From an uncultured Alphaproteobacteria bacterium (GTDB lineage: Bacteria > Pseudomonadota > Alphaproteobacteria > UBA7879 > UBA5542), in contig CAIWGV010000046.1 in NCBI GenBank assembly GCA_903912365.1, positions 10,707 through 74,706 on the forward strand: a stretch of 64,000 nt of DNA, given 5' to 3'. A model generated the notes under the pieces. That model worked only from the letters and a program-made list of their open reading frames with translations. It did not search any database and was not told where the DNA came from. Of this stretch, positions 9,299-24,125 are shown one piece after another (the first letter of the stretch is position 1; every line of letters starts with the position of its first letter). A program made the translations under genes and the position numbers.

Positions 9299-9350
9299 AA
9301 CGGAACAAAGGTCGAGGTTCCCGAAGTAATAGATTTTTTTATGGACTCGG
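9299..9350. repeat. Internally deleted fragment of the ~130-bp palindromic repeat family (copy C)
   Basis: cggaacaaaggtcgaggttcccgaagtaatagatttttttatggactcgg matches the gaaacaaaggtcgagg core and the cgaagtaatag...ttttatgg(g)gctgg right end of the full copies at 10.7-10.9 kb and 22.9 kb. Confidence 0.55.
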
Positions 9351-19900: not shown

Positions 19901-20291
19901 CTATCAAATGGTTCAAAAGAACTACTTCCCAGCATTTAACTTTGGAAACCCCTGGTTTATAGACCAGTGGCTTTCAACGCCCTACTTAGGAAATGTTTCT
20001 TCTTACATTCCCTATTTATCATCAGATGCCTTGTATCTTTTTGGGGGGTTGTCAAACATCTTACAATCCATCGAAACCCTTCTTCACGATCATAGAACTC
20101 TAATTCCTTTGCAGGATCCCCTGAAGAGCGTCACCGTAGAAATGCCTAACTCCCAAGAAGATGGTATCAACTTATTTGGTCAGGACCCCACACCCCTTCA
20201 CCCTGAAATAACCCCCTCTCTAAAAGAGGAAGAAGAAGGAGAAAATCTATTCGGAATACCCCCCTTAGAGAGTATGGTGCTTGGCGGGTGA
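13914..20291 (+). CDS. Giant two-partner-secretion exoprotein (TpsA/FhaB-like) with N-terminal TPS (haemagglutination activity) domain and a long Gly/Ser/Thr/Asn-rich beta-helical repeat region
   Basis: TPS-domain signatures LTAIDWDSFSVG...VNSVVG...QVYILNPNGMVF (NPNGI motif), followed by ~1700 aa of degenerate ~20-25-aa repeats (YMGGFVG / GGLVGQTTG / SISNS...). The reading frame is open from 13710 and encodes a signal-peptide-like RGISFFRKVFPGIQFFLGGVLFSIFAQA|HEA upstream of the first ATG (13914). The true N-terminus is therefore probably upstream, with a non-ATG or slippage-dependent start. No autotransporter beta-domain is found at the C-terminus. Confidence 0.8.
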   Translation: MDITPHQSLTAIDWDSFSVGSKAAVSFHHGGSDYITVNSVVGSKLSEVAGQINVTGGGQVYILNPNGMVFHDGALVDSAVIVGTSTLDRTAFYEKGEVLLRASENAAPIIVNGTLTIKNAGLFRVVAPHFLNNGHIKGQLHVAAAEEVRVDLGDSRLTFTLNGKLKDAFLHTTKGSSVEGKTVTMTVGTVEEVLNETIRIDGDMRAVGLSEEGGRIILKGGDTGKTVVSGTLDASGKMDSDASPSAHVGGLVSVTGHTVEAEPTAHLKADGTTGGKIHFGVDEDFQRSSTDSVLKNPSVKATHVHIHSGAEMAAKATTGKGGSVIAIAKDTTTFQGKETLSEPSIFVTSQKGPGGFAEISGNKLRVEGLVDARSLETDEHGHVLFDPGSILISTAGGATMSGSALSTALIGANVTLQTTVGFSPGADLITIDDEVAWGNGTTLSLIGKDMLFTGNAQVQLIVGFLKIRTAYSTSIPQGAITLQPGYKIDSTDNPVLLFSSNGMDNITNSAGVHLTFGYTNYMNIYGANTVTNGPDTYYGLDLLINGTLPANGNYALMTDMTLVSPFSFPLSDPFTGILTATSLGVNPSPYTLTLPGGPQNLAVLGGNVYWGSLCPQLSGASIDSINFAIQGGSLTLNGPTGAGPITGGTYIGLLAGSATNSTITNVGVSSDSISYTNNIRSPNLYMGGLVGQATSTTPATVSISNITNSLNLYFTDRYVPPTSPPLDLYYIGGLVGSTSGSIFNSSSSGSLTYTQNPPTEGISSNLSAYVGGLVGQTTGSTINNSYYSGALQVSVPTDYGHINNLYVGGIAAYANSTGGLTISASNPTLAPVISISNSGGVVSSNGGVRGGVYMGGFVGASAQSITISNSVIPHGSNNILSLTNTGFVGGASMGGFLGQAFSTSTISNCSNAGTILLTNNNNFNNTGPSFGFISSTFLGGLLGAATGAVILTESHNSGNVTLANTNSATSGASFDSGDINYGGVIGAALSGLTSSLTYNSGALTFSNGGSIGFSGSSSIHMGGFAGALSGPNTITGSTYNSGNLTLSNGTNSNNGNSNNGNVTGGINLGGFVGSSTGAIDGTLGANSNTGTVAFTNGYNGGGTGTIGTYLYVGGFAGAMSANANLTGATSSSPVTVVDQNNSGNNSPPFCVGGLVGNTSSSISNSYATGSVSYTENSINTSALYIAGLVAQTTGAAITSSYYNQALSVTISSAHQLPSLLMGGLVAYNATPLSISSSYTSAGSSLSLTNSGTIAIAAVGGLVGSPGSTLVLSTTTKNAGNMTVTNTGTFGGLFYGGIIGVTKVAVTSTGTTNTGNLTLLNGTVNGAGSIGTVEMGGFVGGSSSAIDGTLGANSSSGTVAFTNGHTGGAGLPYTGTIVNNLSIGGFAGDMSANALIWATSSSPVTVIDANHVGAAPFCIAGLVGTTGAGASISNSSYNGALSATINPNNTLGVLNMGGLVAYSQYSPSISSSYVSAGSSLSLTNSGTLGGGANVGGLFGYLNSFNSSGNTYNAGTMTITNTGTFSSTLNYGGVIGSASQTTTSTGTCTNTGNLTLLNGTSDGPGTITGDVSMGGFFGLSAGSSGTVSSSGVLTFTNGADTGPTAILSGNLNVGGFAGFLNDNAPLSGQSSTGVTVTNNSNITTTKAWSIAGLVGNALNNIINSSASGTVSYVENAINDSTFAIGGLLGQNTGPATISNSSYNGALSATITNNGNSTNSFFLGGIAAVASANLTISGSSLGSNSSLLVTNNGTMYELGIGGISGKSEANIPLTISGSSVGTNASLGFINTGRILSNLRNFFFGGVVAVNGGTATLSKSYNQGNLFLNNSGTLNCTVYYGGIIASPSNGQTINQTFNTGNLSVTNSGTGTLTKPLYIGGFAGKEPGFLTSPFTAANNYTTGSININNSGNLTDVYMGGFMGSVSDPDSTISTSYTRTSLSLTNTGTIAGNTLVGSFAGSNSGTIATSYALIQPSAVAGFTSPLAPIGAGTMSGVTLLQPYQMVQKNYFPAFNFGNPWFIDQWLSTPYLGNVSSYIPYLSSDALYLFGGLSNILQSIETLLHDHRTLIPLQDPLKSVTVEMPNSQEDGINLFGQDPTPLHPEITPSLKEEEEGENLFGIPPLESMVLGG

Positions 20292-21407
20292 GGCTGCCTT
20301 CGGTAAAAAGATATAATACTGTCCTTTAGACTTCATCTTGCCTGCCTGTTCCATGGCTTCTTTTCCAAATCCCCAGAAAAAATCTCCCCGCACGGCTCCT
20401 CGAATGGCGCCCCCCGTGTCTTGCGCCACCATCAGGTGACGGTGATTAAAATGATTATCTGGGTGATAGCCATCAAACCAGATGGGGGCCCCCATGGGGA
20501 AAATTCTTTTGTCTACAGCCATACTCCGTTTGGGAGTCACGGGGATACCCATACACCCGATGGGGCCGTCGCCCGGAATTTCTCGGAAAAATACATAGGA
20601 TGGGTTTTGATGCATAAGCTCTCGGGCTCTCTTTGGATTATCCTTCATCCATTTCCGAATAGACTGCATGGAAACATCCTTCAGGTCCATATACCCCCCT
20701 TCCGCCAGCTTACGACCAATGGGGATAAAAGGATGTCCATTGACACCCGCATACCCTACCCGCATGACGCCTCCTTCTTTCAAATTCACGCGCCCAGATC
20801 CTTGGATGTGCAGGAAAAAGGCTTCAACAGGATCATCCACCCAAACAAGCTCTAGCCCTTGCCCTTCCAAGGCGCCCTCATCTATACTAGCGCGGTCATA
20901 ATAGGGGATAAGCCGTCCCCAGCTGAACCGTCCCCATTTTTTATCCGCCTCTGACATCACTAAGTCCGAGGGTTTTCTATAAAGGGGATAGGCATATTTT
21001 TCGCTGCGGACCCGGGATCCATGCAGCTCACTTTCATAGTACCCCGTGAAAAGCCCCTCATGATTTCCGTTATCACTAGCTTTGTAAGGCGTAAAATAGG
21101 TTTCAAAAAAATCTCGAACTTCCTGGGCTGATTTGGGGTGAAGCTCTAAGGCTTTACGACAGGCTGGATGCCAATCTCCTGCATTTGTACCAAGACCCAC
21201 GGGTCTATTGGCGGGCATTTTTAGCAGAACGGGGCAAGATTTACAGAAAGCTCGAAAGCCATCTATAATATCGTGATCCTGCTGCCAATCCGGAAGGGCA
21301 TAAAAAGAGGAGGGAGTTATTTTTAAGAGGGGCACCTGAGGGCTGCGGCTACAAGCTCCCAAGAGCAAGAGACCAACGGTGACTAGAAAAAATCTATGGG
21401 GCCTCAT
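20265..21407 (-). CDS. mltA: Membrane-bound lytic murein transglycosylase A
   Basis: Lipoprotein signal (LLLGACS), MltA domain and C-terminal 3D domain (DTGGAIRGAVRGDFFWGFG). Its 3' end overlaps the TpsA 3' end by 27 bp, convergently. Confidence 0.85.
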   Translation of the reverse strand: MRPHRFFLVTVGLLLLGACSRSPQVPLLKITPSSFYALPDWQQDHDIIDGFRAFCKSCPVLLKMPANRPVGLGTNAGDWHPACRKALELHPKSAQEVRDFFETYFTPYKASDNGNHEGLFTGYYESELHGSRVRSEKYAYPLYRKPSDLVMSEADKKWGRFSWGRLIPYYDRASIDEGALEGQGLELVWVDDPVEAFFLHIQGSGRVNLKEGGVMRVGYAGVNGHPFIPIGRKLAEGGYMDLKDVSMQSIRKWMKDNPKRARELMHQNPSYVFFREIPGDGPIGCMGIPVTPKRSMAVDKRIFPMGAPIWFDGYHPDNHFNHRHLMVAQDTGGAIRGAVRGDFFWGFGKEAMEQAGKMKSKGQYYIFLPKAASPAKHHTL

Positions 21408-22029
21408 AGGGCAATATCTCTGCCAGTTTCCATGCAGTCTCCTTGGCCTCTAGATTTTTTTCGACGATCCATACCTCATTGATACGGTCAATGGCATTGG
21501 GATCTCCCTCCACCACTTGGCTTTTTTTGTCCTTTCGGAGCTGCGTCTGATCAGAAACAAAGTGGATTTTTATCCGAGCCACGCCCTCTGCAACACCAAT
21601 ATCTTTAATGGTAGCTCCCACAAGGCGAAAGAAGTCCAGCTCCCCTAATAGTCCTTGTTTCTTTACGGCATCAATTTCTTTTTCGTATAAATCATACAAG
21701 GAAGGGGACAAAAGAGGTTGAAGCGTATCTTTGGCCCCTTGCACAAAGGACCGAATGATTACTTCAAAATTACCTTTCATTTCCGTTAAGAAGTTTTCCT
21801 GAGTAAATTTAGAGTCCACAGCCTGCACTTGCTTCATGCCGGTAATAAGGGGGATTTCGTCCAAATCGATCACGGGCCCCTCCCCCACGGAGAGAGACTG
21901 TTCTTTTTGGAATTGACGAACATAGCTGAGAGGACTTTTTTCCAGTCCCGTACGACGGCCAAGACGCATGTACAGCAAAACGGCCACCACAAGGGTAATG
22001 ACTAAAAAAACAATATCGATTATCTGCAT
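21394..22029 (-). CDS. Tim44-like domain protein (alphaproteobacterial, membrane-anchored)
   Basis: N-terminal TM helix IIDIVFLVITLVVAVLLY and C-terminal Tim44/SnoaL-like domain. Adjacent to mltA as in many alphaproteobacteria. Confidence 0.7.
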   Translation of the reverse strand: MQIIDIVFLVITLVVAVLLYMRLGRRTGLEKSPLSYVRQFQKEQSLSVGEGPVIDLDEIPLITGMKQVQAVDSKFTQENFLTEMKGNFEVIIRSFVQGAKDTLQPLLSPSLYDLYEKEIDAVKKQGLLGELDFFRLVGATIKDIGVAEGVARIKIHFVSDQTQLRKDKKSQVVEGDPNAIDRINEVWIVEKNLEAKETAWKLAEILPYEAP

Positions 22030-22091
22030 GGATTTCCCTTCTACTCCTTCTTTATACACACCCTCGTAGGATTACACAACTCTGCGGAGAC

Positions 22092-22592
22092 ATGGGGGTC
22101 AGTTCAGTTCAATTGCATCGGATTCTAAAAGATGCCGGAGTTAGGTCTGAATACTTTGAAGAAGTTAGAACGCAATCTCTACATAAATTTTATGAAAGAT
22201 CCTTTCACCAAGAAATAAATACCCACAGCAAAAATCTTTACGCTACTGAACATTACTTTCAGGCAGTCTTTGAAGCATGTAAGGCATATGAACAAGGAGT
22301 GATCAGAAAAGCAAAGTTGGAGGGACATGGAGTGCGTTTAATGGAAGAAGCCTGGGATAAAAAAGGACCTCTAGATCTAAAGAAGAGTAAAAGCAGAGCA
22401 GATGCTAACATACAAGAGGGGATCAAATCTCTCTCCATTGGATTAATGCAGGCTATAAGAAATCCGGGAGGTCATAAACTTTCTGAAGAATGGCCTATTT
22501 CTCAAGAAGACTGCTTAAACATTTTAAGCTTTTTAACATTTTTGTTTCAAAAATTAGATGAAGCAAGACACGTTGAAAAAGTAGCTCCATAG
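22092..22592 (+). CDS. HEPN-domain protein, Abi_C/TIGR02391-like (putative abortive-infection/RNase toxin-type domain), solo
   Basis: 166 aa. The C-terminal AIRNPGGHKLSEE carries the HEPN R-x4-H motif in the context typical of Abi_C family proteins (ALRNxxAH). No MNT/antitoxin partner ORF is nearby. Sits between a core gene and the 3' end of tRNA-Arg. Confidence 0.5.
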   Translation: MGVSSVQLHRILKDAGVRSEYFEEVRTQSLHKFYERSFHQEINTHSKNLYATEHYFQAVFEACKAYEQGVIRKAKLEGHGVRLMEEAWDKKGPLDLKKSKSRADANIQEGIKSLSIGLMQAIRNPGGHKLSEEWPISQEDCLNILSFLTFLFQKLDEARHVEKVAP

Positions 22593-22728
22593 ATTGAGTT
22601 CAGGATATATCACTTAAAGATTAAAAAAATCATTCTAATGTTATACCCTTTTTCCCCCAAAGGTAGCACCAGGGTAGCACGGAGGAAATTCTGGAATCCG
22701 CCACCACCTCTGAAAACGGCTCTGGCAA

Positions 22729-22805
22729 TGGTGCGCCCGAGAGGACTCGAACCTCTAACCTCTTGATTCGTAGTCAAGTGCTCTATCCAATTGAGCTACG
22801 GGCGC
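22729..22805 (-). tRNA. tRNA-Arg (anticodon ACG)
   Basis: Minus-strand sequence GCGCCCGTAGCTCAATTGGATAGAGCACTTGACTACGAATCAAGAGGTTAGAGGTTCGAGTCCTCTCGGGCGCACCA. 7-bp acceptor stem, anticodon loop CUACGAA, T-loop GGTTCGAGTCC, encoded CCA. Confidence 0.9.
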
Positions 22806-22868
22806 CTAATAGTTTGGGAAGGGTACCCTAAGATTCCTTATTTCGCAAGAAGTTTTTGAGATTTCATG

Positions 22869-23003
22869 CCATTTCCATTTATACCAGCCCCAGAAAATTT
22901 CTAGTACGCGCGAAACAAAGGTCGAGGTTCTCGACGTGTACATAGATGCACATGAGGGAACCGACCGTCTGTAGTTTCTCCAAGCAATAGAGGTTTATGG
23001 GGC
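22869..23003. repeat. Complete compact copy (~130 bp) of the MITE-like palindromic repeat (copy B)
   Basis: ataccagccccagaaaatttctagtacgcgcgaaacaaaggtcgaggttctcgacgtgtacat...gtctgtagtttctccaagcaatagaggtttatggggctggtact. Terminal inverted repeats taccagccccagaaaa / tttatggggctggta and a central hairpin gtcgag-gtt-ctcgac. Lies between tRNA-Arg and a transporter gene. Confidence 0.8.
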
Positions 23004-23008
23004 TGGTA

Positions 23009-24004
23009 CTATTTGAATAAAACCATCAAGACGTTGATGACCACAAAGGACATTAAAGTTGTCAGAACAATCAGAGTGTTCGCCTTTTTAACATCCAATC
23101 CATACCTATGAGCAAACAAAGATGCATTCCGGGGAGCCGGCATGGCCGCAATTAATGTGGTTGTCAAAAGCCAAAAGGGCGGCAAGTCAAATACATATTT
23201 CCCCAGGCAAAAAGCGGTGGCAGGCAAGATAAAATTTTTCAGGACAATAAGGGTTAGAACCTCCCGTCGAAAGCTTCCTTTCTGAAAACTTATCTTGTCC
23301 TGCGCCAGAGAAAGCCCCAGGGTGAACAAAGAAAGAGGCGGTGCCGTATCTCCAATCCAACTGAAGAGGGTTACCACCGTATCAGGAAACTTGAGATCAT
23401 AATAGGCAAAGGTAATTCCAATGAAAGACGCTGGAATGATGGGTGTTTTTAAAATAATCTTGGGAAATTCCTTTAAAAATAGCTTCTTGGCCACGGAGGG
23501 ATGCTTTTTCTTCCCCGACCGAGACATATAAAAATCATATTCAACCATGGCAAGAACTATAGGGGTAAAGGCGATTGTTTGAAAAATTAACACCATGATA
23601 ACAGGTGCCACGGTTTTAAAGAAAAGAGAAAAAATGGGGATAGCCAGATAGGTTACATTCACCTGAGCCACGGTCATGAAAGCAATTCCCAGTTCCGCTC
23701 GGCGTTGGGGGAAAAACTTTTTTACGATCAGAACCGTTAGAATGCCGATAACCGCCGTACTGATAGCAAACACCGCCATAAAGGAAAAATTGAACAGCTT
23801 ACTCAAAGGCGCATTGAGGAATTGAAATAAAAGCATAGAGGGAATGGCCAAGAAGAAAACAAAGTCAGAGAGAACAGATGTGGCCTTTTTCCCTAAAAGA
23901 CCGGAGATAGCACACAAATATCCGAAAATGATTGTCCCAAAAATGGGAAGATTATACTTTAGTAGATGTATCAATTTCTTCTTCTTTAAAAATAATAGGT
24001 CCAT
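23009..24004 (-). CDS. Auxin efflux carrier (AEC) family membrane transporter
   Basis: ~10 TM helices. N-terminal region ...LPIFGTIIFGYLCAISGLLG... and internal repeat typical of PF03547 (MdcF/malate permease-like). Start trimmed to the internal Met MDLLF. Confidence 0.72.
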   Translation of the reverse strand: MDLLFLKKKKLIHLLKYNLPIFGTIIFGYLCAISGLLGKKATSVLSDFVFFLAIPSMLLFQFLNAPLSKLFNFSFMAVFAISTAVIGILTVLIVKKFFPQRRAELGIAFMTVAQVNVTYLAIPIFSLFFKTVAPVIMVLIFQTIAFTPIVLAMVEYDFYMSRSGKKKHPSVAKKLFLKEFPKIILKTPIIPASFIGITFAYYDLKFPDTVVTLFSWIGDTAPPLSLFTLGLSLAQDKISFQKGSFRREVLTLIVLKNFILPATAFCLGKYVFDLPPFWLLTTTLIAAMPAPRNASLFAHRYGLDVKKANTLIVLTTLMSFVVINVLMVLFK

Positions 24005-24125
24005 ATCCCCATCGCTTGGGGAGAAGGCACTATACTGAACTTTTATAAAAAATTCAATCGGATGGGGAAATTCCTGGCGCACTTCTCATTCATAGGATAT
24101 CCTTGGAGGAATTAGAGAGACACAG

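Follow-up and report, generated by a model that had tools for sequence, protein, structure and literature searches.

A 5'-truncated HEPN gene of the TIGR02391/Ymh family, probably an inactive remnant, in a variable slot beside tRNA-Arg of an uncultured Holosporaceae bacterium

Introduction

An open reading frame (ORF) of 166 codons, situated between a tRNA-Arg gene and a Tim44-like gene of an uncultured alphaproteobacterium, raises the question of whether it encodes a working HEPN toxin that arrived on mobile DNA or is what is left of one. An earlier note on this DNA had taken it for a solo HEPN gene of an Abi_C/TIGR02391-like kind, placed where integrative elements insert. We located every feature that the note had listed, namely, the 166-aa ORF, its R-x4-H motif, the tRNA-Arg gene, a short direct repeat, and a MITE copy (Table 1). 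Ymh (PF09509) has been listed among the HEPN families; its Rx4-6H motif is conserved, and its members occur as solos, as fusions, and in restriction-modification (R-M) operons (Anantharaman et al. 2013, PMC3710099). The literature that we searched contained no biochemical characterisation of any Ymh/TIGR02391 family member. Here, we describe the ORF and its surroundings in the window, by which we mean the whole 64,000-nucleotide stretch of DNA that was analysed, together with the orthologous loci of relatives and the contexts of full-length homologues.

Table 1. Features of the locus, numbered from the first nucleotide of the window (L008 and L024 are orthologous loci in relatives)
Feature	Position	Strand	Remarks
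MltA gene	20265-21407	-	
Tim44-like gene	21394-22029	-	Core flank; in an operon with MltA
Conserved leader of the Tim44-like gene	22030-22089	-	Left boundary of the variable slot; common to all relatives
Window-specific segment	22090-22723		634 nt; occupied form of the slot, where L024 has 11 nt
HEPN ORF	22092-22592	+	166 aa, ATG start; TIGR02391/Ymh family, 5'-truncated, HEPN domain complete
R123-N-P-G-G-H128 codons	22458-22475	+	R-x4-H; predicted HEPN RNase active site
Conserved block	22655-22700		~45 nt, ~91% identical to L008; includes GGTAGCAC-CAG-GGTAGCAC (22662-22680)
tRNA-Arg (anticodon ACG)	22729-22805	-	Intact, CCA encoded; ARAGORN and Rfam
MITE-like insertion	22870-23013		144 nt, 5' side of the tRNA; terminal inverted repeats
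AEC-family transporter gene	23009-24082	-	

Results

The ORF carries a HEPN domain of the TIGR02391/Ymh family

The ORF matched the Pfam family PF09509 (Hypoth_Ymh) along the entire profile (positions 1-119 of 119; E = 3.5e-25; 88.6 bits against a cut-off of 25 bits) and the NCBIfam family TIGR02391 (E = 7e-20; 71.4 bits against a cut-off of 39.45 bits). Because both scores are above their cut-offs, this is no chance ORF. The protein models as a HEPN fold, having the all-alpha up-and-down helical bundle of that superfamily, and the superfamily's R-x4-6-H motif is present as R123-NPGG-H128, with R123 encoded at 22458-22460 and H128 at 22473-22475. The ORF had been said to end with this motif; the motif is there, but it lies in the C-terminal third (residues 121-133, AIRNPGGHKLSEE) and not at the very end. 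In an alignment of 146 family representatives, the R, N, P, and H of the motif are conserved in 89-99% of the sequences (R and H in 99%), and the ORF keeps 19 of the 20 positions that are conserved at 80% or more, R123, N124, P125, and H128 among them.

Abi_C (PF14355) was absent from the Pfam matches of the ORF even at E <= 10, and the same scan readily detected it in the neighbour of a homologue (locus L028). The HepT-like family PF01934 scored 15.3 bits, below its threshold of 23.5. Given these HMM results, the conserved motif, and the published description of the family (PMC3710099), the HEPN/TIGR02391 half of the label proposed earlier is right and the Abi_C half is wrong. Among the PADLOC models, PD-Lambda-3_B was matched by the ORF in its C-terminal part (profile positions 139-266 of 270; E = 6e-20), and an Argonaute-associated HEPN model was also matched, again through the C-terminal domain only. 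A PDB sequence search with the family profile returned no solved relative (best E = 0.41, unrelated).

The ORF is a truncated copy of a two-domain protein

The protein cluster of the ORF is a singleton. An index of 5.8 billion proteins yielded seven proteins, including the ORF itself; the other six are 241-248 aa long and 43-53% identical to it, so that the closest homologue among the 5.8 billion is 53% identical. When the full-length homologue P0002 was used as the query, there were 715 matches, with many bacterial phyla and an archaeon among the best 120. These best 120 of the 715 matches are 237-292 aa long and cover at least 96% of P0002, its N-terminal domain included, and the two-domain architecture of ~243 aa is therefore strongly conserved. 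Short members of 130-190 aa occur in the wider TIGR02391/Ymh family.

The ORF aligns only to residues ~90 to the end of its homologues, with the first ~85-90 residues missing. Its first five residues (MGVSS) have no counterpart in the alignment, and the HEPN homology begins at about residue 6. In an AF2 model of P0002 (pLDDT 90.7), helices at residues 7-18, 24-34, 50-64, 69-83, 86-98, and 105-116 precede the HEPN domain. The break falls within the fifth of these helices (86-98), in the N-terminal domain, and because the window ORF begins inside that helix, the break is not at a domain boundary. The N-terminal helical domain of ~100 aa that belongs to the ~243-aa subfamily is lacking from the ORF, and tblastn found no remnant of it anywhere in the window (chance matches only, E > 0.3). 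The ORF had been regarded as a solo gene; it is not a complete one, but the 3' two-thirds of a gene for a two-domain protein of ~243 aa, truncated at its 5' end.

We also compared the ORF with its subfamily position by position. At 63 subfamily positions conserved at 90% or more, the ORF keeps 49 and has changed 14, and in the other subfamily members the median number of changed positions is 1, and the maximum 13, over the 71 such columns counted. By these alignment counts, the ORF is the most divergent member at subfamily-conserved positions. Around the motif, the subfamily consensus RNPTAHEPA has become RNPGGHKLS. Four of the substitutions (T to G, E to K, P to L, and A to S) are at positions that flank the catalytic residues R and H.

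The start codon lies at a junction with host DNA

The tRNA-Arg gene faces the ORF in a convergent arrangement, its 3' end 136 nt beyond the ORF stop, and the placement of the ORF directly in the 3' flank of the tRNA, as proposed earlier, is borne out. A blastn comparison with the empty locus L024 matched 22001-22089 and 22724-22756 of the window, the two stretches that flank the 11-nt gap in L024. On the left side, homology with the relatives stops at 22080-22089 (at 22089 for L024). With its ATG at 22092, the ORF thus starts at the very junction with host DNA, and similarity to HEPN proteins begins ~15 nt past that ATG. On the right side, the 67 nt that adjoin the tRNA region (22657-22723) are common to the window and L008 but not to empty or filler-type sites.

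GGAG stands only 2 nt 5' of the ATG, with no well-spaced ribosome-binding site; a promoter scan found no plus-strand promoter-like site upstream of the ORF, and a terminator scan found no terminator between the tRNA and the ORF, the counts of both scans not being above those in shuffles. The leader of the Tim44-like gene probably holds the promoter of the Tim44/MltA operon, judging from a minus-strand TTGTGT-17 nt-TATAAA arrangement that the promoter scan did not call.

The 699-nt gap between the Tim44-like gene and the tRNA contains no ORF besides the HEPN fragment, and no integrase was found. There is likewise no adjacent partner ORF, of MNT type or any other, the neighbours being the Tim44-like gene and tRNA-Arg. 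The remark that no MNT antitoxin is adjacent therefore stands, but the expectation of an MNT partner does not, as MNT pairs with the DUF86/HepT family (PMC3710099). With the operon proteins of homologues as tblastn queries, no remnant of Mod, Res, or RhuM was found in the window (chance matches only, E > 0.3). Queries of 25 nt and 16 nt from the tRNA-Arg 3' end, with up to 3 mismatches allowed, found no second copy of that end in the 64-kb window and matched only an unrelated tRNA-Met. In an Rfam search of 21900-23200, the tRNA alone was above gathering; matches to sroE (E = 0.15) and to Plastid-ycf2 (antisense to the tRNA) were below it and were dismissed.

The gap between tRNA-Arg and the Tim44-like gene is a variable slot

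Orthologous loci were recovered through MltA and Tim44; the Tim44 genes of these relatives are 72-76% identical to that of the window at the nucleotide level. The flanking genes (AEC transporter, tRNA-Arg, Tim44-like, and MltA) are syntenic in relatives, and tRNA-Arg is conserved in L006, L007, L008, and L024, although the tRNA is absent altogether from the more distant L009. The spacer, measured from the Tim44 ATG to the tRNA-Arg 3' end, is 699 nt in the window, where it holds the truncated HEPN ORF. It is 76 nt and empty in L024, 208 nt with an unrelated 157-nt filler in L006, L007, and L022, 933 nt in L008, and more than 359 nt, up to the contig end, in L023, where it holds another unrelated sequence with no long ORF. 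The one short locus returned by a metagenome scan with the Tim44-like protein was L022, which is of the filler type. Over these six related Holosporaceae loci and the HEPN fragment, the slot thus has at least five states.

In L008, the spacer contains two overlapping ORFs that are fragments of a frameshifted HipA-kinase pseudogene. Taken separately, they gave weak matches to HipA (Pfam E = 5e-4; PDB E = 0.17-0.27) and nothing in NCBIfam. Joined across the frameshift, they matched HipA_C (E = 9.8e-8; 32.3 bits against a cut-off of 30.5; profile positions 1-50 of 213), and nine of nine PDB matches were HipA.

Tblastn detected no HEPN remnant at any of the orthologous loci (L006, L007, L008, L022, L023, and L024). 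The ORF has a GC content of 37.5%, which places it in the 2nd percentile of 501-nt windows, and a GC3 of 0.287, against 0.39-0.56 in 12 host genes (about 0.49). The HEPN gene is foreign and was probably acquired from a donor of lower GC content. The view that it is acquired and not core is hence upheld by its absence from all of the relatives' orthologous loci and by its GC3, and orthologues at the same position, which had been named as grounds for abandoning that view, were not found in any of the six loci.

The locus combines presence/absence polymorphism with atypical base composition, as a tRNA-targeted island does, but the integrase and the direct repeat of the tRNA 3' end (attL/attR) that also mark such islands are not found within the 64-kb window. 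Neither an integrase nor another sign of an intact element was seen, and the integrative-element setting proposed earlier is not supported. Capture by illegitimate recombination may explain the insertion as well as a tRNA-targeting integrase would.

A conserved block and a MITE-like element adjoin the slot

The two copies of GGTAGCAC lie at 22662-22669 and 22673-22680 and nowhere else in the window. As an 8-mer count, they are not above chance, with at least two copies held by 18 of 100 shuffles, and the repeat in L008 is imperfect (GGTAGCGC / GGCAGCAC). This repeat is not an att duplication; the tRNA 3' end has no copy elsewhere in the window. The ~45-nt block that includes the repeat is more conserved between the window and L008 than the neighbouring genes are, the two Tim44 genes being only 74% identical. 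Rfam contains nothing that matches this block, it occurs only once in the window, and a scan of viral contigs did not find it.

On the other side of the tRNA, the MITE-like element has imperfect terminal inverted repeats of 24 nt that are 79% complementary, and partial copies of it are present at 9301-9327, 10671-10744, and 10831-10954. It is precisely absent from two relatives. Its insertion is independent of the HEPN segment.

Intact relatives are often found with type III R-M genes

We examined seven genomic contexts of full-length relatives. Three of them (L002, L025, and L027) are type III R-M loci: P0184 is encoded between mod and res (Mod - Ymh - Res), P0002 lies in a Mod - Ymh - RhuM - Res arrangement within a larger defence island, and P0172 is directly upstream of Res, after a HEPN/MNT pair. 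P0205 (L026) is in an island that adjoins a tmRNA gene and also holds a PemK pair and an IS21 fragment. P0004 and P0006 (L003 and L004) stand alone among housekeeping genes. The copy in L028 is on a viral contig, and its neighbours are an Eco57I-type methylase, a GIY-YIG protein, an AbiJ protein (AbiJ_NTD3 plus Abi_C), and HamA. This was the one subfamily match in 2.9 million viral contigs, and the subfamily is therefore not typically phage-borne. Family members occur on 59 of 72,556 plasmids, 30 of which are conjugative. The N-terminal domain of the intact ~243-aa subfamily gives death-fold-like structural matches.

Discussion

We consider it probable that the ORF is a horizontally acquired, truncated remnant of a defence-type RNase gene and that it is inactive. 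Intact members are single polypeptides of ~243 aa in which a domain of six helices precedes the HEPN domain, and the latter is predicted to act as a metal-independent RNase through the R-x4-H dyad. On the model of PrrC and RloC, the full-length protein is likely to be a latent suicide or back-up RNase, which would be restrained via its N-terminal domain and its partners, and in many cases this control may be exerted via the type III R-M complex. A fragment of such a gene would have landed, or been left, in the gap that separates the tRNA-Arg(ACG) 3' end from the promoter region of the Tim44-like gene and MltA, a gap that tolerates insertions and whose content differs in nearly every relative examined. 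The event at the left junction would have cost the gene its first ~85-90 codons, and so most of the N-terminal domain, along with the native promoter and ribosome-binding site. The ATG now in use is at the junction. Because the N-terminal domain, its own expression signals, and any partners have been lost, the ORF is most likely inert, a recent relic that is either not expressed or not active. Residual RNase activity is possible since the HEPN domain is still intact.

Two findings speak against a relic: the frame is fully open over 166 codons, and all but one of the residues conserved family-wide are kept. By a rough calculation, if the 14 subfamily-level changes had built up neutrally since the truncation (d ~0.11), an open frame of 166 codons would survive in ~4% of cases from stop codons alone and in far fewer once indels are counted. 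A long-decayed pseudogene was rejected on this basis. Either the truncation is recent, then, or the divergence pre-dates the truncation. Put in terms of selection, the improbability of the open frame leaves a recent truncation, which is favoured by the un-ameliorated GC3, or an ORF under selection. If the gene arrived recently, as the un-ameliorated GC3 indicates, its open frame tells us little about selection.

A functional stand-alone toxin or abortive-infection effector is unlikely, though the least unlikely of the alternatives. The 166-aa protein would be expressed, would dimerise, and would cleave RNA through R123 and H128, either constitutively at a low level or upon phage attack, and any partner would be unrecognised or encoded elsewhere. 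A HEPN-only protein is not necessarily dead, because short family members and the solos of Anantharaman et al. exist, and the intact frame, the complete Pfam domain, the retained catalytic residues, and the improbability of an open frame after long neutral decay are what one would expect of a working gene. So is the match to the C-terminal part of PD-Lambda-3_B, a component of a system described as abortive infection (PMC13190303). However, all close homologues possess the N-terminal domain that is absent here, and the break is inside that domain and not at a boundary between domains. The start codon at the insertion junction, the 2-nt spacing of GGAG, and the want of a promoter-like site also count against this reading, and the convergent tRNA gene faces the ORF with no terminator detected between them. 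Subfamily-invariant positions beside the catalytic motif are changed, and there is no PD-Lambda-3_A, MNT, or R-M partner.

The surroundings of the ORF, too, admit other explanations. That it is a core or lineage-conserved gene that merely adjoins the tRNA has next to no probability: the synteny of the AEC transporter, tRNA-Arg, Tim44-like, and MltA genes would suit it, but the absence of the ORF, without a tblastn trace, from all six orthologous loci, its singleton cluster, and its low GC3 refute it. It is improbable, but by no means as improbable as that, that the ORF is the cargo of a family of small elements targeting tRNA-Arg. The ~45-nt block would form the end of such an element, possibly as an att arm or a site bound by an integrase. 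Toxin genes, such as HEPN here and HipA in L008, would be interchangeable, and truncation of the HEPN gene would have come only with later decay. The block is better conserved between the window and L008 than Tim44 while the cargo differs, it is absent from empty and filler-type sites, both cargoes are toxin-type genes, and one full-length homologue resides in a tmRNA-adjacent island, all of which is consistent with such elements. Against them stand the lack of an integrase and of a duplicated tRNA 3' end in the window, the single copy of the block in the window, and its absence from viral contigs. Moreover, the block is common to two loci only, and common descent with loss in other lineages therefore explains it equally well. 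More improbable still is either of two further proposals, that an endosymbiont has kept a live, de-regulated HEPN RNase or that the block marks a family of miniature tRNA-Arg cassettes in Holosporaceae. For a live RNase, the lost N-terminal domain might have been auto-inhibitory or an adaptor, and antisense read-through from the convergent tRNA-Arg could serve as a check. As for cassettes, the block with its interchangeable toxin cargo would constitute a previously undescribed family.

The TIGR02391/Ymh family is already known and would be annotated automatically; what is new is a truncated member of it and the description, for an uncultured lineage, of a variable slot. A standard pipeline would name the ORF "TIGR02391 family protein," to which we add the one correction that the copy is truncated and probably inert. 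The locus itself matters little, being ordinary genome litter and not a new system. In these uncultured Holosporaceae, the tRNA-Arg/Tim44 gap serves as a natural landing pad that collects the debris of toxin genes, both HEPN and HipA, and defence or toxin DNA therefore still flows into these bacteria. Experiments would be better spent on the intact ~243-aa subfamily, with its 715 matches in bacteria and archaea and its frequent place inside type III R-M operons, than on the remnant.

Among known systems, the HepT/MNT (DUF86) pairs differ from the locus both in the HEPN family, the HepT-like match of the ORF being below threshold, and in having an adjacent MNT gene. Abi_C, which AbiJ-type proteins carry as their C-terminal HEPN domain, is another HEPN family linked to abortive infection, but the ORF is not one of its members; a true AbiJ_NTD3 plus Abi_C protein stands beside the Ymh homologue in L028. 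Component B of PD-lambda-3 from E. coli resembles the ORF in the C-terminal part of its PADLOC model, whereas the ~138 N-terminal profile positions and component A are absent here, and no same-strand gene is adjacent. A PrrC-like role has been proposed for some Ymh proteins (Anantharaman et al., PMC3710099), and full-length relatives, lying between or next to mod and res in L002, L025, and L027, do resemble the PrrC/RloC-type anticodon nucleases of R-M operons. Any likeness in tRNA cleavage would be by analogy, however; the Ymh subfamily has no ABC-ATPase domain, and the window has no R-M genes or remnants, unlike the loci of P0002, P0184, and P0172, which are embedded in R-M operons. From the ~243-aa Ymh subfamily, the ORF differs in being without the N-terminal domain carried by the best 120 of the 715 matches to P0002. 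With the Ymh/TIGR02391/PF09509 family it has in common scores above the cut-offs of both HMMs, the HEPN helical fold, the R-N-x-x-x-H motif, sporadic occurrence, and a context of acquired DNA.

Contents of the tRNA-Arg/Tim44 gap in related Holosporaceae

In one related Holosporaceae metagenome-assembled genome (locus L008), the gap between the tRNA-Arg 3' end and the Tim44-like gene holds fragments of a HipA-type kinase toxin gene disrupted by a frameshift and an internal deletion. Once the frameshift was mended, a profile search matched it to HipA_C above the cut-off (E value of 9.8e-8). In three other relatives (L006, L007, and L022), the gap is filled instead by an unrelated 157 nt with a GC-rich hairpin (GCCCCGTGCCACGGGGC), no copy of which was found within the window.

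Just past the tRNA-Arg 3' end, a block of ~45 nt is ~91% identical between the window and L008, even though identity falls to ~74% in the genes on either side and the neighboring cargo is not the same. The block is missing from the empty and filler-type sites of relatives and occurs as a single copy within the window; searches of Rfam and of viral contigs returned no match to it.

Coordinates of features in the window and at related loci
Feature	Locus and position	Strand	Remark
Repeat-rich exoprotein gene, 2125 aa	window 13914-20291	+	adjoins MltA
~45-nt block	window 22655-22700		just past tRNA-Arg 3' end; identity to L008
MITE-like insertion, 144 nt	window 22870-23013		
HipA-type kinase toxin gene fragments, two overlapping ORFs	L008:1885-2452	minus	tRNA-Arg/Tim44 gap
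157-nt gap filler	L006:1609-1765		also L007, L022
Type III restriction-modification operons with intact subfamily member	L002:6111-12752; L025:4073-9666; L027:6001-9803		

Neighboring genes

L006 and L008 lack exactly the MITE-like element. In the window, the AEC transporter gene takes its stop codon (window 23009-23011) from the edge of this element, and the protein ends in ...MVLFK, versus ...MVLFSIES in L008. The exoprotein differs strongly in size between relatives, from 2125 aa in the window and 2081 aa in L006/L007 to 1300 to 1312 aa in L023/L024, where the counterparts match Pfam TPS.

Intact subfamily members

At three loci (L002, L025, and L027), a type III restriction-modification operon carries an intact member of the TIGR02391/Ymh subfamily, inserted between mod and res or immediately beside them; one of these operons also contains a RhuM-like gene. 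Their placement at mod/res of type III operons resembles that of PrrC, and no experimental characterization of this arrangement was found in the searched literature.
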